A stretch of 64,000 nt of DNA, taken from positions 64,976,001-65,040,000 of the forward strand of contig OX597821.1 in NCBI GenBank assembly GCA_951406725.2, written 5' to 3'. A program made the position numbers and the translations under genes. Shown piece after piece: positions 6,127 to 49,649 of this stretch. How positions within the stretch are numbered: position 1 is the first letter of the stretch; each line of letters opens with the position of its first letter. The notes beneath the pieces were generated by a model, which saw only the letters and a list, made by a program, of their open reading frames with translations, did not search any database and was not told the origin of the DNA. The stretch comes from Octopus vulgaris (taxonomy: Eukaryota).

Positions 6127-6161
<35 letters not shown>

Positions 6162-6685
6162 CTGAGAATGTGTTTCTGTCTGTCAGTCTGTGTGTTTCCC
6201 TAAAACTTGAGAACTACACAACCAATTTCATCCAAATTTTACACATACCTTACGTAGGATCCATGTAGTTTCATGGGCAAAAAAAATGTTCAACTTCTTG
6301 CATAGAGCAAGCTCATAGCAATATCATATCTTCTCCACTATTTCAGTATTACGTGTTAAAAGTGAAACAAAAACGTTTCTCTATTTTATGTCAGATACTT
6401 TCACTTTAACAATAAAAAATAATAATAACAATTGAATTATATGTAGTAAGTAATAATTAAAATCAAACTAAAGTATAATATAATCATAACATAACAAAAG
6501 TAAAAATAGAAATTGGTATAAAATTGCATCAATGACTTGAACTTGAATAAGTGGTTTCACATGAATGGGAATAAATTAAAAATAAAATTAGCGTGCAGAA
6601 ATGGAATAGTCCAGATGGATAATAAAAAATTAAATTAAAGAAAAAACTATTGTCTATAAAGTATACAATGTAGAGGAAAAAGGTT

Positions 6686-8360
6686 ACGTTTTTTTTGCGC
6701 TCTGTGTTTTTTGCTCTCTGTGGAATTCGGTAAAGGGAGGAGGGAACAAGGGGTGAATGGTTGTTGTTGTAAAATTTTGAACGTGGTTGATGCGGTTTCG
6801 CGTCTCGCTGGTTCTGCGCGTTACACTTTTTCGGTTCGGGAGGCCGTTTCTCGGCCGGAGGCGACTATGAGCCGCCTCCATCAGGCGGAGGAGATGGAAG
6901 GGAGATTTTACTCTGAAATTTCGACGGAGGTGTCGACATCTGAGGAGGAGTTGGCGGTGAAAAGGATGGAAGGCGCCTGCGCAGGTGTGACGAGGAGGTC
7001 AACGGAAAGAGAGATGGACCTGGCTAGGTTGGCGGGCCTCCAGGAGTTTGTGAAGGAGGACGAGAGCGGTGAGGTCGAGCTGCTGAATCCAGTGGGGCGC
7101 GGAGACTGGTTCCATCGTGGAACCATTAAATATAAAGTATTTATGAATGGAGGTGGAAGGATGGAAGTGGTCAACATGGAGGCAATTGAAGGGGCTCTCA
7201 AGCAGACGGGAGAGGAAGTTGTGTACATGACAGGGGGATTGCAATGCGGAGCGATAGCGGTGCAGTTTAGAAGCGAAGAAGCAGCCAGGAATGTGGCAGC
7301 CAGGGTGGTGAGTACGGAAGGGATTTGCTTGTTGCCCTCATATCTGAATGGGCGGACAACCAGAATTAGGGTGGAGGGAATACCTCCACACCTAGAGGGC
7401 GAATTAATAACGGCTGCGGTTATAAAAGGAAATGAAGATAAAGTGGACATCCTCCACGCCATTATGAAGTATGAAGGCGTGAGAGGTGCCACACTAGTTA
7501 TGAACATTCAAGCGGAGGCGGATGTTATAGAGAGGATTACGGACAGCATAAAAACTGGAAATATTATTATGAGAGTGTGGGTGGAGGGTAGGGCGCCCAG
7601 GTGCTACAAGTGTGGCCAAAGGGGTCACATAAGAGCCTACTGCCCTCCCCCACCAAAGGAAAAAGAAAAGGAAAGCGTTGAGGAAGCCTCAGGAGAGGAA
7701 GAAAATAAACAGAAACAAACAGAGAAGGAAACGACAGAAGAAGAGGAGATGCAACAAGAGTGGAAAGAAGTGGGAACAAAGAGAAAGAGAAAGAAAAAGA
7801 AAAACTGTGCGAAACCCCAACCCACCCCGACACCACCCATACCCTTGGAGTCCCATCCTTCCCCTGCAAACAGTGATTCCACCCACTCCCCGCCTACAAG
7901 AAAAACAAAAACAGACACACAGAGCAAAGAAAGTCCCAAGACCCATTTTTTATGTGTTATACAAGGGAAAGACATACAAAACGTTAAAAAACTGGTGTTA
8001 ACCAAGTGGTACGAACACGAAGATTGGAGCTACACGGCTGTGGATAGTGAGGATACGGGTATATTGGCGACAAGGTTTGAGGAAGAGGGTGTGTGTTGGA
8101 AGTCAGTGGAAATGAAAGATGAATGGATAGAGAGGGCTAAAAGAAAAACGAATGTTGTGATAGGTGAAACAGGAATACTAATTGAAAATGGGTGAAGAAG
8201 GACAGATAAGTGATGCTGGCGGATGGGGCCGTCGGTATCGCTCTCATATATCATTTTCATATTCCATTTTGCTCATATATATGTAATTGTGATGTTCCAT
8301 GTCCCCATGTCTTGTAATGTCCCCCTCTTCGTTGGCCCCTTGTGGGTAATAAAAAATCAT
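6686..8360 (+). mobile_element. ORF1/gag-only retroelement-like unit 1
   Basis: Begins ACGTTTTTTTTGCGCTCTG, ends GCCCCTTGTGGGTAATAAAAAATCAT; single long ORF; termini shared with units 2 and 3. Confidence 0.8.
6867..8195 (+). CDS. Gag-like/ORF1-type nucleic-acid-binding protein (Tx1 ORF1/ZCCHC3-like), 442 aa from first ATG, intact
   Basis: Open frame 6711-8195, first ATG at 6867 (MSRLHQ...). CX2CX4HX4C knuckle CYKCGQRGHIRAYC, preceded by RRM-like segments (AIAVQFRSEEAA; TRIRVEGIPP) and followed by acidic, basic NLS-like (KRKRKKKK) and Pro-rich tracts. Confidence 0.8.
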   Translation: MSRLHQAEEMEGRFYSEISTEVSTSEEELAVKRMEGACAGVTRRSTEREMDLARLAGLQEFVKEDESGEVELLNPVGRGDWFHRGTIKYKVFMNGGGRMEVVNMEAIEGALKQTGEEVVYMTGGLQCGAIAVQFRSEEAARNVAARVVSTEGICLLPSYLNGRTTRIRVEGIPPHLEGELITAAVIKGNEDKVDILHAIMKYEGVRGATLVMNIQAEADVIERITDSIKTGNIIMRVWVEGRAPRCYKCGQRGHIRAYCPPPPKEKEKESVEEASGEEENKQKQTEKETTEEEEMQQEWKEVGTKRKRKKKKNCAKPQPTPTPPIPLESHPSPANSDSTHSPPTRKTKTDTQSKESPKTHFLCVIQGKDIQNVKKLVLTKWYEHEDWSYTAVDSEDTGILATRFEEEGVCWKSVEMKDEWIERAKRKTNVVIGETGILIENG

Positions 8361-10093
8361 ACGTTTTTTTTGCGCTCTGTAAAATTCGGTAAAAAAGAAC
8401 AAAAAGCGTTGTTGTTGTTGTGGAAATTCTGAACGGCGTTGACGCGGTTTCGCGTTTCGCTCGTTCAGCGCGTTACACTTTTTTCTGTTTTGGCGGCCGT
8501 TTTCGGTCTGTCAGACAGAAGGAAATGGACTATGAGTCTTAACAGACTTGTCCACGACAGATGAGGAACTGGAACAGGCAATTGCAATGAAGCTGATGGA
8601 AGAAAAGGCTGGAGTTTTCGAGTCTTTATCAGACTTGTCTACGTCTGAGAAGGAGCTAGAAATAGGCAGCAAGGAAATTGGAAGAGAAGCTGGGTTATAC
8701 CTATGCCGGTGTAACCAAGAAGGCGGAAGAGAAAGGGGTCGACATGGCCAAGTTGCCAAGTTACCAGAAATACATGAAAAAGGAAAGCGGTGAGGTGGAA
8801 CTATCACCGACACCCAGGAGAAAAGAATGGTATGATAAGAGGACCATTGTTTACAGGGTGTGCGCAAACGAAAGGAAGAGGGTAGAAGTTGTATCCATGG
8901 AATGGATAGAGGAAGCCCTGCGAAGAACTGAGGAGGAAATAAATTTTCTGACTCGAGGATCCAAGTACGGGACCGTAGTTGTGCACTTTAAAAGTGAATC
9001 TGCAGCGAGGAAGATGGCAGCGAAGGCGGTGAAGTCGGAAAAGGTAACACTGTTACCTACGTATTTAAACAGGAGGATTACACGAATAAGGGTGGAGGGA
9101 GTGCCACCAAACGTGGAGGCAGAATGGATTGTGGCGGCTGTGATCAGCGGCCACGAGGACGAAGTGGATATTCTCCATGCCTCGGTTAAGTCCGAGGGCT
9201 GGAGAGGCGTAACAGTGGAGCTGAACGTACAGGCAGAGACCGAGGTACTGGTGGACCTGACGGAAAGCATCAGACTGGGAGACGTGGTCATGAGAGTGTG
9301 GGTGGAGGGCAGGGCTCCACGTTGTTACAAGTGTGGCCTGAGGGGTCACATAAGAGCCTTCTGCCCTCCCCCAGGGAAAGAAATGGATTCCGAACCAGAG
9401 AGAGAGAAGCAGAAACCAGAGGAGAAGGAAACAGAGGAAGAGAATACACAGAAATGGAAGGAAGCTGGAAGTAAGAGGAAGAGAAGAATATGTGGAAAAA
9501 AAGAAAATAATATGGAACTCCAATCTACCCCAAAACCTCCCACACCCTCTGAGTCCCACCCTATCCATGCAGACATTGAACCCACCCGCTCCCCCCAACA
9601 AGAAAACAAAAGAAAAAAAGAATACACACACACAAGAGATTGAAATCGAACCCAGGCCGTACATTTGTACTATGACTGAACAGAAAGAAGTTAAAAGTCT
9701 AATGGAAGAGTATAAATGGTATGATGTTGGAGAGACTAGGTATGCTGTGATTGAAAAGAAGAACATAGGTGAGTTTATGGGGAGGTGTGAAAGGGAGAAT
9801 TGGGAGGTGAAAGATATAAGAATGAGCGATGAATTCGTGGAAAATATGGATGAGTATTTCGGAGTAAGAATGGATATGGAATTTATTCGTATTGGCAAAG
9901 AACATTCAAGTGACTATGAAAAACAAAGGACAGGTAAGTGATGCTGACGGACGGGGCCGTTGGTATCGCTTTCATTTTATCATTTTTTTCGTTTAACAAT
10001 TCATGTTCATAAAGTTTAATTATAATGTTCTATGTCCCCATGTTTTGTTATGTCCGCTATTCTTCGTAGCCCCTTAGTGGGTAATAAAGAAAT
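8361..10093 (+). mobile_element. ORF1/gag-only retroelement-like unit 2
   Basis: Begins ACGTTTTTTTTGCGCTCTG directly after the unit 1 tail; ends GCCCCTTAGTGGGTAATAAAGAAAT. Confidence 0.8.
8525..9941 (+). pseudogene. Frameshifted ORF1-type CCHC protein (unit 2)
   Basis: ORF pieces 8548-8793, 8678-9643 and 9492-9941 together match the unit 3 protein; knuckle CYKCGLRGHIRAFC. Frameshifts near 8530, 8665-8680 and in the C/A runs at ~9597-9620. Confidence 0.75.
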
Positions 10094-11777
10094 ACGCGTT
10101 TTTTTCGGCTCCTGAAAATTCGGTAAAAAAGAACAAAAAGCGTTGTTGTTGTTGTGGAAATTCTGAACGGCGTTGACGCGGTTTCGCGTTTCGCTCGTTC
10201 AGCGCGTTACACTTTTTCTGTTTTGGCGGCCGTTTTCGGTCTGTCAGACAGAAGGAAATGGACAACCCCTACCTGATGGGAGATACGGCTGCAGTTTTTG
10301 AGTCTTTAACAGACTTGTCTACGTCTGAGGAGGAGCTAGAAATAGCAGTGAGGAAAATGGATCAGAAGCTGGGTTATACCTATGCCGGTGTAACCAAGAA
10401 GGCGGAAGAGAAAGGGGTCGACATGGCCAAGTTGCCAAGTTACCAGAAATACATGAAAAAGGAAAGCGGTGAGGTGGAACTATCACCGACACCCAGGAGA
10501 AAGGAATGGTATGATAAGAGGACCATTATTTACAGGGTGTTCGCAAACGAAAGGAAGAGGGTAGAAGTTGTAACCATGGAATGGATAGAGGAAGCCCTGC
10601 GAAGAACTGAGGAGGAAATAAATTTTCTGACTCGAGGATCCAAGTACGGTACCGTAGTTGTGCATTTCAAAACTGAGTCTGCAGCGAGGAAGATGGCGGC
10701 GAAGGCGGTGAAGTCAGAAAAGGTAACCCTATTACCTACGTATTTAAACAGGAGGATTACACGAATAAGGGTGGAGGGAGTGCCACCAAACGTGGAGGCA
10801 GAATGGATTGTGGCGGCTGTGATCAGCGGCCACGAGGACGAAGTGGATATTCTCCATGCCTCGGTTAAGTCCGAGGGCTGGAGAGGCGTAACAGTGGAGC
10901 TGAACGTACAGGCAGAGACCGAGGTACTGGTGGACCTGACGGAAAGCATCAGACTGGGAGACGTGGTCATGAGAGTGTGGGTGGAGGGCAGGGCTCCACG
11001 TTGTTACAAGTGTGGCCTGAGGGGTCACATAAGAGCCTTCTGCCCTCCCCCAGGGAAAGAAATGGATTCCGAACCAGAGAGAGAGAAGCAGAAACCAGAG
11101 GAGAAGGAAACAGATGGAAGAGAATACACAGAAATGGAAGGAAGCTGGAAGTAAGAGGAAGAGAAGAATATGTGGAAAAAAAGAAAATAATATGGAACTC
11201 CAATCTACCCCAAAACCTCCCACACCCTCTGAGTCCCACCCTATCCATGCAGACATTGAACCCACCCGCTCCCCCCAAACAAGAAAACAAAAGAAAAAAA
11301 AGAATACACACACACAAGAGATTGAAATCGAACCCAGGCCGTACATTTGTACTATGACTGAACAGAAAGAAGTTAAAAGTCTAATGGAAGAGTATAAATG
11401 GTATGATGTTGGAGAGACTAGGTATGCTGTGATTGAAAAGAAGAACATAGGTGAGTTTATGGGGAGGTGTGAAAGGGAGAATTGGGAGGTGAAAGATATA
11501 AGAATGAGCGATGAATTCGTGGAAAATATGGATGAGTATTTCGGAGTAAGAATGGATATGGAATTTATTCGTATTGACAAAGAACATTCAAGTGACTATG
11601 AAAAACAAAGGACAGGTAAGTGATGCTGACGGACGGGGCCGTTGGTATCGCTTTCATTTTATCATTTTTTTTCGTTTAACAATTCATGTTCATAAAGTTT
11701 AATTATAATGTTCTATGTCCCCATGTTTTGTGATGTCCGCTATTCTTCGTAGCCCCTTAGTGGGTAATAAAGAAATC
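10094..11777 (+). mobile_element. ORF1/gag-only retroelement-like unit 3
   Basis: Begins ACGCGTTTTTTTCGGCTCCTG; ends GCCCCTTAGTGGGTAATAAAGAAATC, after which the Helitron sequence resumes. Confidence 0.8.
10258..11623 (+). pseudogene. ORF1-type CCHC protein (unit 3), one +1 frameshift
   Basis: ORFs 10258-11154 and 11114-11623 join into one ~455-aa frame if the extra T in ACAGATGGAAG (~11116; unit 2 has ACAGAGGAAG) is removed. Confidence 0.75.
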
Positions 11778-13227
11778 ACATGGAGAAAAGCACCTTCGAA
11801 AAGTGTCTTGGTGCGACTATGAAAGCTATCTAATCAGAGCAGTAAATTCGCCACAATAGAAGCAAGGTTCGAGTCAACGGAGCGTGCAAGGGAGTACTCG
11901 ACTCGAACTTGCAAAGTGGAAATAATTTATAATTATTTTTACCTTTATATCTAGGACGTCCCGGAAACAATTTAAAATGCACACCTCCCCCAGAAGTAGA
12001 GGTAGGCTGGATTGTAGCCACACTTCTATACAAGAGGGAGGACAAGATACAATTGATCGAAATTACAAGAGACGGGCTAACAATTCCAGTCTGTTATATA
12101 TTTTTAGTATTGTTATCACTAACGATATCAATATATAACTTTATATTTTGTATTTTATGTGTAGATGTATATATATAGATGTACACATATACATACACAG
12201 ATATACATGCACTAGCACTATGACTCGGCAACGACGGGTCTTTAATGCTAGTATATATATAAAACTGAGAATGTGTGTCCGTCTGTCTGTGTGAATCCCT
12301 GAATCTTCAGAACTACACAACCAATTTCATTCAAATTTTGCACATGCCTTACTTAGGGTCCAAGGAGTGTCGTGGGCTCGCTCTGGGCGCCATTGGGCTC
12401 ACTGTCCACAGCTACGACGCCACAGTGAGCGCTATGGCGACCAGAGCATTGGCCATACCGTAATAAAAGGTTTGGCTTGGCTTGGCTTGGCTTGGAAAGG
12501 AAAGGAAAGGAAAGGAAAGGAAAGGAAAGGATTTTAATTATATATAGAGAACTATAGCGGGAAGCATAAAAAAACAACCATTCCTCAGTTGTTGGCAGTT
12601 TTACCTACTCCGCATTGCAACAAGATGCGTCTTCTGCAAAGCAATTGCTCGCCCAAAGCAATTTAAATAAATTTGAGATACGTGGAACGTCAAAGCTGCT
12701 AGCAAAAACAGGACAGTGAAAACATTCGGCAAGGGCTGTTTAACCCTAACGAGGTTAAGTGGTGAACGCTGGAGAAAGAAGGCTTTGTCTAGAGACCGAC
12801 AAGAATGTATGAACGAGAAGAAAAAAAATTACATTTAGAAGTGGATCTATAATTATTGAGGTCAGAATTTCTGTTAGAAATAGAGAACTATAAATATTGA
12901 ATTATGCATAAAGTGCTGACTTACATTCGGGGCTTCCAATTTCTCTGTAATGTATAAGATAATCGCAAAATCATCGCACATGTCACCATCGATTACAAAC
13001 AACGGTGGAAGATAAAAGTTCCAGATCACTTTCTTGTTATTTCATTCGTACAAGGATCGTATTATGTTTCGGCTTAAAATAAATTATAGATACAAATATA
13101 ATGTATAGAAATATATAAAAACCAGAATAGAAAATAAACGTCTTAGGCATATAAAATAAGATAACATGAGATATCAAGGTGTTATAAACTTGAAACCTAC
13201 TAGAATATCATAGATTATATATATATA

Positions 13228-19638: not shown

Positions 19639-20445
19639 CAGCAGGCCAGCTGGAGAGCAGCAGGCCAACTGGAGAGCAGGCCAGCTGGAGAGCAGGCCAG
19701 CTGGAGAGCAGGCCAACTGGAGAGCAAGCCAAAAGCAGAGAAAGCCAAAAGGGGAGCAGGCCACCTGGGCAGCAGGCTAACTGGAGAGCAGACCAGCTAG
19801 AGAGCAGCAGGCCAACTGGAGCGCAAGCCAACTGGAGAGCAGGCCAGCTGGAGAGCAGCAGGCCAGCTGGAGAGCAGCAGGCCAACTGGAGTGCAAGCCA
19901 AAAATAGAGCAAACCAACTGGAGAGCACCCCAAATGGAGAGCAGGCCAGCTGGAGAGCAGGTCAACTGGAGAGCAAGCCAAAAGGAGAGCAAGCTAACTG
20001 GAGAGCAAGCCAAATGGAGAACAAGCCAAAAGGAGAGCAAGTCAAAAAGAGGGCAAGCCAACTGGAAAGCAAGTCAAATGGAGAGTAAGATAACTGGAGA
20101 GCGAGCCAAAAGGAGAGTAAGCCAAAAGGAGAGAAAGCCAACTGGAGAGTAGGTCAACTGGAGAGCAAGTCAAAAGGAGAGCAAGCCAAATGAATAGTAA
20201 GCGAAACTGGTGAGCAAGTCAAAAGGAGAGCAAGCCAGCTGGAGAGCAATTCAAAAGGAGAGCAAGCAAAATGGATAGCAATTCAAAAGGAGAACAAGCC
20301 AACTGGAGAGCAAGCCAACTCGAGGGAGAGCAGGCCAAATCGAGAGCAGGCCAGCTTGCGAGCAGGTCAACTGGAGAGCAAGCTAGCTGGAGAGCAGGCC
20401 AAATGGAGAACAGGCCAGCTGGAGACCAGGCCAAATGGAGAGCAA
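19639..20445. repeat. Purine-rich minisatellite, 16-bp unit GGAGAGCAGGCCA(A/G)CT with 19-bp variants
   Basis: About 50 degenerate tandem units; source of the spurious RASQ/LACSP ORFs. Confidence 0.9.
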
Positions 20446-21836: not shown

Positions 21837-22560
21837 GTAAATGTAATATGTGACAATTATTCGGTAGCCATGATAAAACTCCGTGTTTCAGAGAGAATTA
21901 CATAAAGACATGCAGAGAGACTCCCGAAACAATCATACGTTATGTTCAAATTATTTGTATTGAGCAAAGCTGATTATGGTTGGTAGAACCAAAGGCTGGA
22001 TGAGGAGGAAAGAGGAATAAAGGAACGTGTGCACATGTTTCTTACAGTTGTTTAAGGATAGATGAGGAGATTGTTTGTTTGCCACAAACGATCGGTAGCC
22101 AGAAGGAATAGATGGAAACCAATGTTAACTGCCGATCGCTTGCAGTGTAATGCAGCTTCCCTTTTTCCTTCTCATTCACCTTTTCGTTGACTTTAACTTA
22201 TACCAACTGTCCCTGAAGGCTGTAAGATGGCGGAATCGCTAGCACGCCGTAGCACGCCGGAGCACGCCGGAGCGCGCCGGGGCACGCCGGAGCATGCCGG
22301 AGCAAACCGGGTGAAATGCTTAGCGGTATTTCGTCTGTCGTTACGTTCTGATTTCAAATTCCGCCGAGGTCGACTTTGCCTTTCATCCTTTTATCATCGA
22401 TTAAATAAGTACCAGTTACGCACTGGGGTCGATATAATCGACTTAATCCGTTTGTCTGTCATTTGTCTTCTCTGTGTTTAGCACCTTGGGATAGTAAAGA
22501 AATAGATATTTCGTCTGCCGTTACGTTCTGAGTACAAATTCTGCCGAGGTCCACTTTGCC

Positions 22561-24830
22561 ATTCTCCCTTCTTCGGCCTCTTTTTGATCCACGACTGCTG
22601 TTCGGTCATGGAGACGATCTGCGGGAAAGCGCGCCTCACAAACGGCGACCTCACCTGTTCACTGTCATCTAAGTAGAGCCGAAGATGTCACCATCGCGAG
22701 ACTGCGCATCATCAACCATGACATGCCCAGCCCTCCTTTTAACGGGTGTTGGTAGCAAACGGATCGCCCGACCATCGGAGCGCATCCTTTCCACAAGAAG
22801 CGGAAGAGAATGCGTTCTATCTTGGTGATGATAGGGTCGGGACAAGGCAGGGCGGTCAAACGGTAGTAGATGACGGAAGCGATGTATGTGTTCGCCACCT
22901 TCGCCCGACCTTTAAGGGACAGCTTCCTCTCGTTCCATTGCCAGGCGAGAGTGATCCCCCCGCTCGTTATCTTGTTCCAGTTCTTCGTTTGGAGGTCAGG
23001 ACTAAATCAGAACGCGAAAAACTCGACAGGACCTTCGGTCCAGCGTCCCACGACGGAGGCGATGGTGGACGGCGTGGGCTTGCTTCTCTAGGTACCGAGC
23101 GGCAAGCCCACTGACTTTTACCGGTTGATTTTCGCTTCTGTTACCGCTTCGTAGTCGTTCAATGTCTCACTGACCAGCTCGATGTGTTTCTGGCTTGACA
23201 CTACGACGGTAACGTCGTCCGCGTATACAGTCACGCACGTCCCGTATCCCAATTCTTGCGGGATGTCCCTCAGCGTCGCCATCTTCCGCAGTACTGGTTC
23301 GAGGGTCAGTACGTATAGAAGCGACGAGAGGGGGCATTCCTGACGGACTGAACGTGCAATGGCGAAAGGTCTCGATAGATGTCCATTTACGCGAATTACC
23401 GAACGGATGCTCTGTACAAAGCAGCTATCCAGCCGCGGAAGACGAGACTGAAACCAGCCGCTATGAGGATAGCCTCCAAGTATCGATTGTCTACCCTATC
23501 GAACGCATTTGATTGATCCAAATTGATCAGGTCCTCACACATGCCATGTTATTTAACTACCCTGTGTATGATGTAGCGCATCAGATGGATGTTGTCATGG
23601 ATGCTCCGGCCCGGCACAACACACGTTTGCGCCTTATCGTCCAGTTTCTCAATGACAAGCGCTAACCACTTGGCTAACACTTTGACCAAAGTCTGCATTG
23701 AGCAGAGTGATGGGCCTAAAGTTATCTATTACGTCCCCCTTGTTTGAATCTTTCTTCAGCAGAGTTACGTCTCCTCGGCTCACGAAACCGGGGATGCTCC
23801 CGTTTTGCTGCCAGATGCAGTACACTGCTGCAAAGACGTCTCCAAACGAGTCTGATATACAACTTTAGCTCATAGAGTTGACCATCCAAACCCGGCGATT
23901 TGTCCCTCGAGCATTCTGCCATCGCGTTCCGCGCTTCCGCTGCCGTGATGGCACCTTCGCAGCACCCTGCCTCTCTTGTAGAGAATAGTGGAAGGCCTTT
24001 CAACAGCATTTTCCCCGACTGTTCGGGACGAGCGGCGAGCGAGAACGCAGGGTGGACTTCACTGCCTACATGCACAGCCTGCCACTACTCTCGACAAGAG
24101 ATTCACGCCCTTGTTCATCTACCAGAGACCGAATGGTGGCTTTGTTGCCCTGTTGCGCCTCCGCCACCCGGGCCTCTCGCGCGGCTCCAACAACTTCGTT
24201 CCTTAGAGCACGCATCCTAGCTCTGACATCACACTCTTCGTGTTTGGCGTTGAAGTGTTGGTCGAGGGCCAACCTCGCCGCCAAAACCTCGGATACGATT
24301 CCACTTCTAATCGGCTCTTCTAGCTTTTTAACTAGGTCACCTTCTACTCTGTTTCTATCTATGGCAAGTGCTTTGCTATACCTAATCGCTTCTACTTTTA
24401 TTGCTCTCTTGAGGGCAAACCACCATTTGCTGTTGACGATGGCTCCTGTCAAAGCCCTCTTTACTAGCGTGCTAATCCGTCTTTGAAAACTTGTCTGGAT
24501 GGGAAAGATGCGTTTAGTTTCCAGTACCCGGGACTCTGCCTATGTGTCTTATCTAAATCTATCATACACGTCACAAGTTTGTGATCCATGTAGTTGACTA
24601 TGTGGAATTGTGGACACCCTAAGCTATCTCTATCTACTGTCCTACACAGTATCCTATCTAGATACGATCTCGATGACCCTATGCGGTTGCTCCATGTTCA
24701 CGTTGGCACATTCGGGTGGTCGAGTCGTTACCTGTCAGACAGTTGAAAGCGTCTGAGCAGGTCTCTGAGCCATTTGCATCCCCGTCTATTCCTATCTCTG
24801 CCCACATAGTCTACATGTGTGTCAAGCAGT
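22561..24830 (-). pseudogene. Tx1/L1-clade LINE ORF2 remnant (APE endonuclease C-terminus plus reverse transcriptase)
   Basis: Minus-strand motifs SRSYLDRILC, MDHKLV, PGYWKLNAS, KSPGLDG, SVRQGCPLSSLLY, VYADD (~23215-23230), FRFLWKG...KGGLG; many stops and frameshifts; truncated at both ends. Confidence 0.9.
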
Positions 24831-30398: not shown

Positions 30399-30876
30399 TT
30401 TTTACCTCCGCCTAGGGAGGAGGTTACGTTTTCATCGGCGTTGGTTTGTCCGTCTGTCCCTCTGTCTGTCCGTCTGTGCGCAAAATAACTCAAAAAGTCA
30501 TAAATAGTATTTAGTGAAATTTGCAGAAATAGTTGGTAATGACACGAGGAACAGATGATGAAATTTTGGTAGTGATCCTGAAATTTTCATGAATTCTTGA
30601 AGGATTTTTCATTTATTATATTTACTTTACATGAAGTATTACAGTTACGTTCTTTGATTAACTCCCTTGAAAACACGTTCATCGTTTCCATGTAACCTAT
30701 GGTGGCATTGCTGTTTCCAAAGTTTATTTTCGTTTCTCGATTAGTAATTTTACTCGCGTATCTATCTTAAAATGAGCTGCTTGGCGTAGGTCTACGAAGG
30801 ATGACATGTCAAACCTTGACTATTGGGATCGACTCTGGTTGGCAGATGTCTGTGCTCTCGGAGTGCTTTTCTAGTT
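30399..30876 (+). mobile_element. Helentron-associated non-autonomous element (DINE-1/HINE-like)
   Basis: T-run then ACCTCCGCC subterminal IR, internal (GTCT/GTCC)n, degenerate partner IR (GGCGTAGGT / GGCAGATGT), 3' stem-loop followed by TTTTCTAGTT. Confidence 0.7.
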
Positions 30877-31002
30877 TGCTAACTGTTTTTGTCTTTTTAT
30901 TGTTTACACACTTTCTGTTTTAAACCACAGATGCCACTTGTTTTGAATTGTCCCTTTATGTTTTTCTTTTCGACCCTTGTGGCCAATAAAGAAAAGATTA
31001 TA

Positions 31003-31062
<60 letters not shown>

Positions 31063-33511: not shown

Positions 33512-34928
33512 GCGATCAATGCATTAGCTATACCAGTCGTGACTTACAGTTTCAATATTGTTAACTGGTCAATTACTGAAATATGTTAGCTCGACAGAAA
33601 AATAAGGAAACTGTTGACAACGCATAGAATGCACCACCCTAAGGCAGATACAGAACGACTCTATCTGCCAAGAAAAGAGGAGGCCGTGGTCTTTTGCAAC
33701 TGGCAATAACAATGAAGATTGCTACAATTGGCCTAGACACCTACCTGAAAAACTCTGAGGACTGGATGTTAAAACTTGTCTCAAAACATGAAAACAAGAA
33801 AGCATCATACTCAGTCACAAAACAGGCAAAGGAATATCTAAGTGAATTCCGAATACAACCAATTTCGGAATTAGAGATAGATATACAAGAAACAAGCAAA
33901 GAAAAAGCTAGGCGCATGAAAACCCGTGCCAAAACTGCGGCCTAAGATATTCTGAATAATAAATGGCAAGAAAAACCTCTCTATGGCAAATACCCAAAGA
34001 GAGCGAATAATGCAGATATCGACAAAGCCCTGACCCATCAATGGCTAATGGCCTCTGGCTTAAAATCTGAAACAGAGGGGTTTATCATAGCAGCTCAAGA
34101 TCAATGCCTACCAACAAGAAACTACCAGGCCAACATATTAAAGATCAGAAGCAGTCCCACGTGTCGTGTATGCAAGCAACAAAATGAAACCATTGACCAT
34201 GTGGTCTCCAAGTGCAGTCTTCTAGCGCCTACAGAGTATCTCAACAGGCACGATAGAGCTGCACAATATATTCACTGGGTAATCTGTAAAAACCTGGATT
34301 TGCCCCATGAAAAAAACTGGTGGGAACACAAATCACCCCCAGTGCTTGAAAATGACCACATCTCACTCCTCTGGAACTTCACCATTCAAACTGACAGGAA
34401 GATAGATGCAAATAGGCCAGACATCATATTGAAAGACTTCAAACAAAGAACATGCCTCCTCATTGATATGACTGTCCCAATCGATATAAACGTATCTGTC
34501 AAGACCTACCAAAAACTGAGCAAATATAAAGATCTTGAAATAGAAATCAGCAAAATGTGGAAGCTGAAGACTAAAACAATACCTGTTGCCATAGGTGCCC
34601 TGGGAATGATAGCAAAAGGGGCTGATAGCTACCTAACTCAGATACCAGGAAACCCCAAAATGGCAGAAGTTCAAAAGATAGTGCTCATGGGAACTGCTAC
34701 GCAAAATACTCTCTATGTAATCTCAAGGTTTAAAACAAACATAATTTTCGGTTTAAAAAAAAAAACCTTTTTTTTTTAGACATTCATTAGTACAACATCC
34801 CCACCCCCCAAATATATGGCACACTAGGCATAGCAACAATATGAACTTTCAACCCTGTTGTCTCTTGAGGTCTCTGGGTGAGACTTGGAGCCAACTTGTA
34901 CAAATATAAAGCAAAAGTCAAACATAGA
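33512..34928 (+). mobile_element. 5'-truncated R4/Dong-like non-LTR retrotransposon (RT thumb, CCHC, restriction-like endonuclease)
   Basis: HHPKADTERLYLPRKEGGRGL; CRVC-X8-H-X4-C; RHD; NRPDI...LID...KLSKYKDL (PD-D-xK REL motifs); flanked by (AAT)n at both ends. Confidence 0.9.
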
Positions 34929-35260
34929 ATAATAATAATAATAAATGGCCTGATGCAGTACCAGGCAGTGGCTCTCTGGGCTTCTGATCTTAACTGATTG
35001 GAAGTGTTATCATGTACATTTTTTTGTCTTGGCATAAAAGATGGGCTACAGCAAATATTTTGCTCAATACCACAGATTTGCTTGTCAGTTGTTTGACCGT
35101 AATCAGGTGAGCATGTCCCATAGTGGCTGATGATATGTGCATCTCTGATCACGAGCAGAAGTAGTGGGGGAAGCATCATAGCCATGTGTTGAGAGGGATT
35201 TTGGTGGGCATGAATAATACACCTCTGGAAACATGGGTGTTTCGTTCAACATCATATATA

Positions 35261-36295
35261 TCTTTATATATATAAAACTGAGAATGTGTGTGTGTGTCTG
35301 TCTGTCTGTGTGTTTCCCTAAAACTTGAGAACTACACGACCAATTTCACTCAAATTTTACACATGCCTTACTTAGGGTCCATGTAGTTTCATGGGGAAAA
35401 GAAATGTTCAACTTCTTGCCTAGAGCGAGCCCATAGCAATATCATATCTTCTCCACTATTTCAGTATTACGTGTTAAAAGTGAAACAAAAACGTTTCTCT
35501 ATTTTATGTCAGATACTTTCATTTTAACAATAAAACTAATAACAATTCAATTATATGTAGTAAGTAATAATCAAAATCAAACTAAAGTATCATATAATCA
35601 TAACATAACAAAAGTAAAAATAGAAATTGGTATAAAATTGCATCAATGACTTGAACTTGAATAAGTGGTTTCATATGAATGGGAATAGATTAAAAATAAA
35701 ATTAGCGTGCAGAAATGGAATAGTCCAGATGGATAATAAAAAATTAAATTAAAGAAAAGACTATTGTCTATAAAGTATACAATGTAGAGAAAAAAGATTT
35801 GAACAGATGGAGAAAAGCACCTTCGAAAAGTGCCTTGGTGCCACTATGAAAGATATCTAATCAGAGGCAGTAAATTCGCCACAATAGAAGCAAGGTTCGA
35901 GTCAACGGAGCGTGCAAGGGAGTGCTCGACTCGAACTTGCAAAGTGGAAAATTTTTATTTTTACCTTTATACCTGGGACGTAGGACGTCCCGGAAAAAAA
36001 TTTTAAATGCCCCCCCCCCCCCCGAAGTAGAGGTAGGCTGGATTGTAGCCATACTTCTATACAAGAGGGAGGACAAGATACAATTGATCGAAATTACAAG
36101 AGACGGGCTAACAATTCCAGTCTGTTATATATTTTGAGTATTGTTATCACTAGCGATATCAACATATAACTTTGTATTTTGTATTTTATATGTAGATGTA
36201 TATATGTAGATGTACATGTAATATGTACACATATATATACACATATATACATGCACTAGCACTATGACCCGGCAACGACGGATCTTTAATGCTAG
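35261..36295 (+). mobile_element. Complete non-autonomous Helitron-like element (empty version of 6126-12251)
   Basis: A|TCTTTATATATATAAAACTGAG ... GACCCGGCAACGACGGATC hairpin ... CTAG|T; no TSD. Confidence 0.85.
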
Positions 36296-36503
36296 TATAT
36301 ATATATATGAGAAAAACAACTAGTTTAATCCTCTGATTGAGATATATGTAGTATCAGTACCGAACAGTACTGCCAACATAACGTGGCAGTTCTGAATTAG
36401 GGCTATGTTACTACTCCTTAACCCTGGGAAAACGTCTTTTCCAGCTGGTTTATCGACACATGATCTATATATATATATGTATATATATATGTATATATAT
36501 ATG

Positions 36504-43279: not shown

Positions 43280-44065
43280 GGAGGGTGAGTGGCCCTAGTG
43301 CTCCACTGGTACGTATATCATCGACCCGGAAAGGATTATAGATAAACTCGACCTCGGCTGAATCCCAAATGAGAAAGTAAAGACAGGCGAACTGCAGATA
43401 CGATAAGCATTTTGCCCAGTGCGCTAACCATTTTGTTAATTCACCGCCTTAAACTCGTCTTCATGAATTCAAATTTTGGCACAAGGCCAGCAATTTCTGG
43501 GGAGGGTGTGAGTCGATTATATCGACCTTAGTGCGTAACTAGTACTTATGTTATCGACCTCAAAAGGCAAAGTCGACCTCCACGGAATTTGAACTCAGAA
43601 CATATATAGGGACGAACTGCCGCTAAACATATTGCCCGGTGTGCTAACGATTCTTATTTCTTTATTGCCCACAAGGGACTAAACATAGAGGGGACAAACA
43701 AGGACAGACAAACGGATTAAGTCGATTACATCGACCCCAAAGCGTAACTGGTACTTAATTTATCGACCCCGAATCGATGAAAGGGAAAGTCGACATCGGC
43801 GGAAGTTGAACTCAGAACGTAACGGCAGACGAAACACTTATTTCTTACTACCCACAAGGGGCTAAACACAGAGGGGACAAACAAGGACAGACACACGGAT
43901 TAAGTCGATTATATGGACACCAGTGCTTAACTGGTACTTATTTAATCGACCCCGAAAGGATGAAAGGCAAAGTCGACCTCGGCGGAATTTGAACTCAGAA
44001 CGTAGCGGCAGGCGAAATACCGCTTAGCATTTCGCCCGGCATACTAACGTTTCTGCCAGTTCCCC
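43280..44065 (-). mobile_element. SINE family B cluster including a nested trimer
   Basis: Four core copies on the minus strand; two carry the TGTCC...GCCCCTTGTGGG...AAAGAAAT tail. Confidence 0.8.
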
Positions 44066-47650: not shown

Positions 47651-48241
47651 AAGGCGGCATGCTGGCAGAAACGTTAGCACATCGGGCGAAATGCTTAGCG
47701 GTATTTTGTCTGCTGCTACGTTCTAAGTTCAAATTCTGCCGAGGTCGACTTTGCCTTTCTACCTTTCGGGGTCGATTAAATAAGTACCAGTTATGCACTG
47801 GGGTCGATGTAATCGACTTAATCCGTTTGTCTGTCCTTGTTTGTCCTCTCTGTGTTTAGCCTGTTGTGGGTAGTAAAGAAATAGAAATAAGTATTTCGTT
47901 TACCGTTACGTTCTGAGTTCAAATTCCGCCGAGGTCGACTTTGCCTTTCATCCTTTCGGGGTCGATTCAATAAGTACCAGTTACGCACTGGAGTCGATAT
48001 AATCGACTTAATCCGTTTGTTTGTCCTTGTTTGTCCTCTCTGTGTGTAGCCCCTTGTGGGCAGTAAAGAAATAGGTATTTCGTCCGTCTTTACGTTCTGA
48101 GTTCAAATTCCGCCGAAGTCGACTTTACCTTTCATCCTTTCAGTGTCGATAAAATCAGTACCAGTTGCGTTCTGAGGAGTCAACCTACTCGACTGGCCCC
48201 CTCCCCAAAATTGTGTGTCTTGTTCCTAGAGTAGAAAAGAT
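47651..48241 (+). mobile_element. SINE family B, nested tandem trimer
   Basis: Head AAGGCGGCGAGCTGGCAGAATCGTTAG, core GAGGTCGACTTTGCCTTTCATCCTTTCGGGGTCGATAAATTAAGTACCAG present three times. Other copies at about 315-460(+), 470-665(-), 702-915(+), 1150-1325(+), 22222-22560(+), 29395-29575(+), 33205-33400(-), 42805-43012(-), 47420-47638(+), 49062-49270(+), 50205-50375(-), 58147-58310(-), 61510-62060(+), 62258-62475(+). Confidence 0.85.
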
Positions 48242-49365: not shown

Positions 49366-49649
49366 GTTTATTTTCCATGTTTTACTTGTTTGAGTCATAG
49401 AACTGCGTTGTGCCCATGCAGGGGCAGCGCTTCGAAGGGTTTAGCTGAACATATCGACTCCGATGACGTACTTTAAGTCTGGAAGGTATCGTATCCGTCT
49501 CTTTCGCACGAAAGAGACGGATACGATACCTTCCAGACTTAAGGTACGTCATCGGAGTCGATATGTTCAGCTAAACCCTTCGAAGCGCTGCCCCTGCATG
49601 GGCACAACGCAGTTCTATGACTCAAACAAGTAAAACATGGAAAATAAAC
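49366..49649. repeat. 284-bp near-perfect palindrome
   Basis: 141-bp arms (49366-49506 / 49509-49649), 2-nt centre CA, one mismatch seen. Confidence 0.95.

Follow-up and report, generated by a model that had tools for sequence, protein, structure and literature searches.

What is a conserved RNA hairpin doing at the end of the single open reading frame (ORF) of an ORF1-only retroposon? The question is raised by a 64,000-nt stretch of the Octopus vulgaris genome (contig OX597821.1, positions 64,976,001 to 65,040,000 of the forward strand; hereafter the window, in whose own coordinates all positions are given), and it touches on two matters that are both poorly resolved, namely how ORF1-only elements gain access to a partner reverse transcriptase (RT) and whether ORF1 proteins (ORF1p) recognise specific RNA sequences at all. 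The family described here offers a 34-nt element that has been held against saturated silent sites, together with a SINE as a natural negative control. Because that SINE has the tail without the hairpin and the element is only 34 nt long, the question is testable on short RNA.

An array of ORF1-only units

Three 1.7-kb units, each encoding an ORF1-type protein only, lie head to tail on the plus strand at 6686-11776. Unit 1 (6686-8357, 1.67 kb, subfamily A) is a full ORF1-only element and the only intact unit. Units 2 (8361-10093, +) and 3 (10094-11776, +) belong to subfamily B, and their frameshifted ORFs are left in pieces at 8744-9643 and 9567-9941 and at 10258-11154 and 11114-11623, respectively; with frameshifts in both, the two units differ by 20 substitutions in 1427 aligned bases. 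All three units start with the same few bases followed by a run of T.

The array interrupts a repeat whose end features suggest that it is Helitron-like. The left half of this repeat (6138-6685, +) is 94% identical to positions 35254-35799 and the right half (11777-12271, +) 89% identical to positions 35804-36313 of an uninterrupted, empty-site copy at 35254-36313 (+), and the filled site lacks four of its bases (35800-35803). This 4-base target loss, with neither a target-site duplication nor poly(A) at the locus, neither demonstrates nor rules out retrotransposition in trans. In the right half, tblastn detects part of a decayed ORF1 that belongs to a related family, and the insertion point of the array lies inside this fragment. 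The right flank of unit 3 also recurs in public contigs of two runs (X9 and X11), perhaps because related ORF1 DNA is a preferred target or because copies have spread as cargo of the host repeat. Two O. vulgaris gene models (P0014 and P0155) are spliced models linking B, A and B pieces, implying that mixed subfamily arrays in B-A-B order are present at other loci, and host "genes" of this type are probably mis-annotated retroposon arrays. For subfamily B, O. vulgaris gene models agree with pieces of the units at 81-94 of 89-94 residues, and for unit 1 at 34 of 35; near-identical models sit on records of four differing lengths (78-226 Mb).

The intact ORF of unit 1 (6867-8195, +) encodes 442 amino acids that match a CCHC protein of O. 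bimaculoides and are predicted to comprise two RRM folds, a CCHC knuckle and a C-terminal part of low confidence. The predicted model is confident over residues 51-260 (pLDDT mostly >88) and resembles proteins with tandem RRMs (Foldseek E 2.5e-5), with a VIA Z of up to 9.8 and an rmsd of 2.0 over 77 residues; in a protein atlas the matches were CCHC clusters and one ZCCHC3-like cluster (0.90-0.92). We aligned two window ORFs with 62 relatives (the O. bimaculoides match and 61 of at least 150 relatives); a zf-CCHC match after the RRMs, which falls below the Pfam cut-off (E 0.0011), was found in 33 of these 64 members. When units 1 and 3 are compared over 202 codons of the RRM-knuckle core, synonymous differences are saturated (pS 0.735), pN is 0.257 and dN/dS 0.11, and the ORF1 proteins are ~50% identical; the ORF is under purifying selection, in a family amplified to many copies.

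No RT or endonuclease family was found in the five ORF pieces scanned, each unit holding one long plus-strand ORF, nor in 19 relatives scanned, and no longer fused relative was present among 1242 candidates, which is weak evidence. In metagenome contigs, a loose search pattern matched 118 loci, none of them related by blastn or tblastn, and protein-seeded scans of viral and prokaryotic contigs recovered no relative. The combination of RRM and CCHC domains marks a type I ORF1p and is consistent with Tx1 elements as described in non-mammalian animals (PMC5203782). In O. vulgaris, 13 L1-Tx1 families are described as recently active, and the parts of the supplement to that study considered here, which deals with 80 families, contain no mention of ORF1-only forms or hairpins (PMC13282606). 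Judged from domain architecture and not from ORF1-ORF2 linkage, the partner clade is probably L1-Tx1.

Elsewhere in the window, a near-perfect palindrome at 49366-49649, whose 140-bp arms flank a 4-nt centre and fold at -275.9 kcal/mol, may be an assembly artefact or else a foldback element or inverted duplication; a 277-codon open stretch at 33946-34779 (+) with a weak zf-RVT match (E 2.4e-5) is probably the end of another non-LTR element; and ~49 copies of a 16-bp GC-rich unit occupy 19640-20445.

The stem-loop and its conservation

Each unit carries a hairpin with a 14-bp stem and a 6-nt G-rich loop in its 3' UTR, 115-124 nt from the unit's 3' end, at 8209-8242 in unit 1, 9937-9970 in unit 2 and 11619-11652 in unit 3 (all +). 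A preliminary description of this DNA had reported this stem-loop with pairing-preserving substitutions, and folding confirms it: the predicted energies are -21.6 kcal/mol for 8209-8242 and -19.4 kcal/mol for 9937-9970 (z -5.80 and -5.69), and 0 of 200 shuffles folded as well. When the hairpin is embedded in RNA contexts of 209-1734 nt, including the whole unit, its mean pair probability is 0.97-1.0 with a lowest single pair of 0.54, and the loop, with four G's shared by every unit, is predicted to be unpaired (0.94-1.0). Each version has four G-U pairs. The hairpins of units 2 and 3 are identical, and unit 1 differs from them by two one-sided stem differences, both of which pair, and by a third difference that lies in the loop, as had been described; across the two versions, 12 stem pairs are invariant, two are one-sided variants and none is two-sided. 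The further claim that the structure forms only as plus-strand RNA holds in part: the reverse strands have z of +0.14 and -1.03, no sign of a fold, but under DNA parameters the plus strand folds too (-6.7 and -6.3 kcal/mol).

Rfam returned nine weak matches on 6500-12200, none of which reached the gathering score or lay over the hairpin; SECIS and ribozyme readings were dropped because of this and because their characteristic motifs are absent. A sigma-70/terminator scan, which is not applicable here, gave chance-level matches.

Conservation is unevenly distributed along the unit, and between units 1 and 3 it begins in the 3' region with a lead-in 11 nt before the stem (8198-8208, +; 10 of 11 positions equal to units 2 and 3). 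The stem-loop itself is identical at 31 of 34 positions (three differences, 91% identity), after which identity drops to 31 of 53 aligned columns in a variable U-rich linker (8243-8288, +) and rises again to 58 of 72 in a terminal block (8289-8357, +) that ends in AATAAA with no poly(A). Upstream, a 5' UTR block (6760-6854, +) is identical at 82 of 96 positions, the ORF core at 341 of 538 and the ORF C-terminus at 114 of 234. The stem-loop is conserved above the linker (p 0.0013) and the C-terminal part of the ORF (p 1.4e-6), but Fisher tests do not place the 5' UTR block (p 0.56) or the terminal block (p 0.26) significantly below it. The hairpin is one of three conserved blocks, putatively acting in cis, and not a lone feature. 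Long-range pairing between the lead-in and the terminal block was hinted at by RNAalifold and finds no support in the pair probabilities. The 5' UTR block contains a weaker predicted hairpin, with plus-strand z of -0.9 to -2.1; in one unit, 7 of its 26 consensus pairs are broken or contain a gap. This hairpin lies at 6775-6825, 8425-8470 and 10160-10205 (+), where two one-sided changes leave the inner 6 bp intact and several pairs, the outer ones, are broken in unit 1.

Copies in public contigs add further alleles of the stem. Contigs from 4 of 24 listed runs aligned on 9780-10115 (1132, 109, 29 and 6 contigs), and 3 of 35 listed variant rows fall in the stem, all three keeping the pairing. 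These change U-G to U-A at 9962 (9, 12, 4 and 4 contigs in the four runs), G-U to G-C at 9964 (9, 11, 4 and 4) and U-A to U-G at 9965 (24, 1, 1 and 0, with majority depth in run X4). From the 32 listed rows outside the stem (15 transitions and 17 transversions) we estimate a probability of 0.30 that a change pairs by chance. The window alone contains two distinct hairpin versions only, so that 2 of 2 pairing-preserving changes is not significant (p 0.09), and a shuffle control is uninformative for such changes. For the contigs, 3 of 3 changes keeping pairing gives p 0.027, and 5 of 5 with the window's two gives p 0.0025, against p 0.11 if only transitions are considered, all on a variant table that is incomplete: X11 records 10, 11 and 13 differ 9, 7 and 8 times over 50-63 nt, of which at most three are listed, and unit 1 alleles are absent from it though unit-1-like contigs aligned, so that pair-breaking changes may be hidden. 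All five stem changes are one-sided G-U swaps, four of them on the 3' arm, and no two-sided compensatory change occurs among the two window versions and the listed contig variants. These changes fit the stem but do not amount to covariation, and RNAalifold drew on two distinct full versions.

Some contigs align over about 9925-9986 only and are unlike the sequence on either side (e.g., X11 records 11 and 13). Among 24 listed loose ends (71 more exist), six lie just before 9925-9928, with approximately four upstream types distinguishable by eye. Together these point to a module of ~50 nt that is common to several diverged subfamilies.

Given its conservation against saturated synonymous sites and the three further pairing-preserving public alleles, the hairpin is very probably a selected, cis-acting RNA structure. 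We also considered that the module has no current function, having been copied between subfamilies by template switching or by gene conversion in arrays, with pairing kept by chance. Mixed A/B arrays, here and elsewhere as judged from the B-A-B gene models, would provide the setting for such exchange, part of the amplification may have occurred at the DNA level (the right flank recurs in two runs), and the incomplete variant table leaves room for chance. But the patchy conservation (91%, 58% and 81% along 150 nt), repeated at the 5' end, would require several short tracts, all five listed stem changes pair, and the module is found downstream of several unlike sequences, which together make this account improbable.

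Candidate readers of the hairpin

The preliminary description had placed a UGA stop inside the stem of units 2 and 3, and this is borne out (9939-9941, within the 5' arm, in unit 2). The ORF of unit 1 already ends 13 nt upstream of the stem, and the stem UGA follows five codons on in the same frame as a second stop; in all three units the stem UGA is in frame and overlaps an AUG (UGAUG). A role in translation control, through termination, read-through or UGAUG stop-start coupling as the relic of an ORF1/ORF2 junction, would make sense of this overlap, and SART1 is described as employing a UAAUG overlap followed by an RNA structure (PMC3894237). However, no ORF2 follows the stem, the overlapping AUG frames are just 34, 23 and 18 codons long and diverge after 10-11, and the intact unit terminates five codons earlier than the stem stop. 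Three of four single-contig loose ends, by eye and with true frames unverified, likewise show an upstream stop (6, 6 and 4 codons earlier), the fourth being open. With the stop within the stem in units 2 and 3 but upstream of it in unit 1, termination control is unlikely, and we regard a translational role of any of these kinds as very improbable. Of the functional reading first proposed, a selected cis-acting RNA of a LINE-derived element is what stands, and termination control is weakened by the varying position of the stop.

A second alternative is that the host reads the hairpin in a Pol II transcript, where the stem would mask a donor-like site, protect the RNA or set the 3' end before the AATAAA. 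In units 2 and 3 the lead-in holds a consensus donor-like sequence (9931-9939) that reaches the base of the stem, RNAalifold stretches the stem over it, and exons are joined here in gene models P0014 and P0155. The concentration of four of the five stem changes on the 3' arm fits as well, and a host reader would explain both the conservation of the sequence and its absence from SINEs. The intact unit 1, however, has no donor GT, the outer stem extension is broken there, P0014 and P0155 are predictions, and no splice joint occurs among the contig alignments listed; we consider a host signal unlikely.

The terminal block bears on the partner LINE. The last ~50 nt of the unit align with the tails of five repeats in the window, which are probably SINEs, and with one further tail (best blastn matches E 6e-4 and 0.002). 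The tail at 48005-48073 (+) has no hairpin homologue, and other copies end near 22503 and 47882 (+) and near 43840 and 43656 (-). A covariance model built on the hairpin module picked out the three units and no other copy in the window (next matches E 0.3), and no tRNA gene was called in the 64 kb. The SINE that shares the tail forms its own head-to-tail tandems at 43653-44017 and 47717-48166 (periods 183 and 190), in which the downstream unit is 5'-truncated. At 30700-30995 (+), the 3' end of another element has a similar terminal motif (tail 30925-31003) followed by (ATT)n, with no hairpin homologue. A broken RT element at 22665-24539 (-; RVT_1 E 1.8e-8) lacks its own 3' end, having been cut there by a SINE; by its motifs this relic is probably L1/Tx1-like. 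No autonomous LINE bearing the hairpin turned up. A shared tail is generally taken to mean that elements use one reverse transcriptase (PMC3747384). As the SINE copies have the tail without the hairpin, the SINE seems to move hairpin-free if the same partner is used. One or more RNAs that have this tail and are mobilised in trans therefore seem to do without the hairpin, which counts against its being a docking site for ORF2p.

With this reservation, and at somewhat less than even confidence, we favour the reading that the hairpin is a recognition signal for ORF2p borrowed from an autonomous LINE, probably L1-Tx1. The unit would be transcribed from its 5' block, its transcript translated to ORF1p, and the unit RNA copied in trans by reverse transcription. 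A factor that every subfamily has in common would dock at the hairpin, with priming beginning in the terminal block that resembles the SINE tails. We infer a shared reader from the fact that the sequence of the stem, and not just its pairing, has been held while the ORF1 proteins drifted to ~50% identity. There are precedents in the stem-loops at the 3' end of zebrafish L2 elements, reported to be bound by ORF2p (PMC4176376), and in a conserved 3' hairpin described in a plant L1 lineage (PMC3747384).

The absence of the hairpin from SINEs would also be accounted for if the hairpin served to package the RNA with ORF1p, since SINEs make no such protein. The stem would offer its G-rich loop to the CCHC knuckle and the RRMs, and the coated RNA would be passed to a borrowed ORF2p. 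CCHC knuckles bind looped guanines; the loop is predicted to be unpaired with its four G's invariant in all units, and the element's sole protein carries both RRMs and a knuckle. For ORF1-only elements, multimerisation with the proteins of a partner has been proposed (PMC5786205). A private protein-RNA pair should drift together, though, and here the ORF1 proteins are ~50% identical against 91% for the hairpin; we also found no literature account of the combination, and rate packaging by ORF1p as rather unlikely. If true, it would be a psi-like arrangement with a two-part 3' UTR, in which selection by ORF1p is separable from ORF2p priming at the SINE-shared tail, and it would place a retrovirus-like signal in a non-LTR parasite, with octopus half-LINEs stacked in mixed arrays. 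If the hairpin is an ORF2p site, as we tentatively favour, it would be an ordinary further example of such sites.

Comparison with known systems

Known ORF1-only non-autonomous LINEs include HAL1 (L1), HeT-A (Jockey) and Ag-Sponge (CR1) (PMC5786205, PMC5753468). The octopus element fits this class as judged from its sequence and predicted protein domains, with an ORF1p-type protein, no RT or endonuclease ORF, and a family amplified with its ORF under selection. Like its counterparts, it has one ORF1-type protein and no ORF2, has 5' and 3' non-coding ends, putatively those of an autonomous LINE, and is present in many copies; unlike them, it belongs to an octopus, encodes an RRM-RRM-CCHC type I ORF1 and not the mammalian L1 ORF1p, lacks poly(A) and has a tail in common with a SINE. 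HeT-A forms head-to-tail arrays, as the octopus units do; here the arrays contain mixed subfamilies and sit inside another repeat. Membership in HAL1 proper was set aside: the architecture is RRM-RRM-CCHC, and the 21 families that the 64 aligned proteins matched at E 0.05, as listed, do not include the type II Transposase_22 of mammalian L1. In the literature we found no account of this octopus family or its hairpin, and Repbase and the Zenodo library of PMC13282606 may hold it.

SART1, as described, resembles the octopus units in the overlap of a stop and an AUG at a structured site (PMC3894237). In the octopus there is no ORF2, the overlap lies within the stem and unit 1 stops earlier; stop-start coupling of the SART1 type was rejected, the downstream frames being 18-34 codons long and not conserved.

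In having a single conserved stem-loop in the 3' tail, the octopus element resembles ZfL2-1, ZfL2-2 and UnaL2 as described in PMC4176376 and the hairpin reported for maize and sorghum L1 and SINE elements (PMC3747384). Unlike those stem-loops, the octopus hairpin lies 115-124 nt from the end and is not found in the SINE, and compared with the loops of stringent LINEs it has 14 bp, four G-U pairs, a near-fixed stem sequence and no two-sided changes. On the assumption that the same LINE serves both, the SINE has the tail in common and lacks the hairpin, and we did not place the hairpin among the 3' recognition stem-loops of stringent LINEs; by analogy it may nevertheless work like one. The family adds a cephalopod case, probably of L1-Tx1 type, to the short list of half-LINEs.
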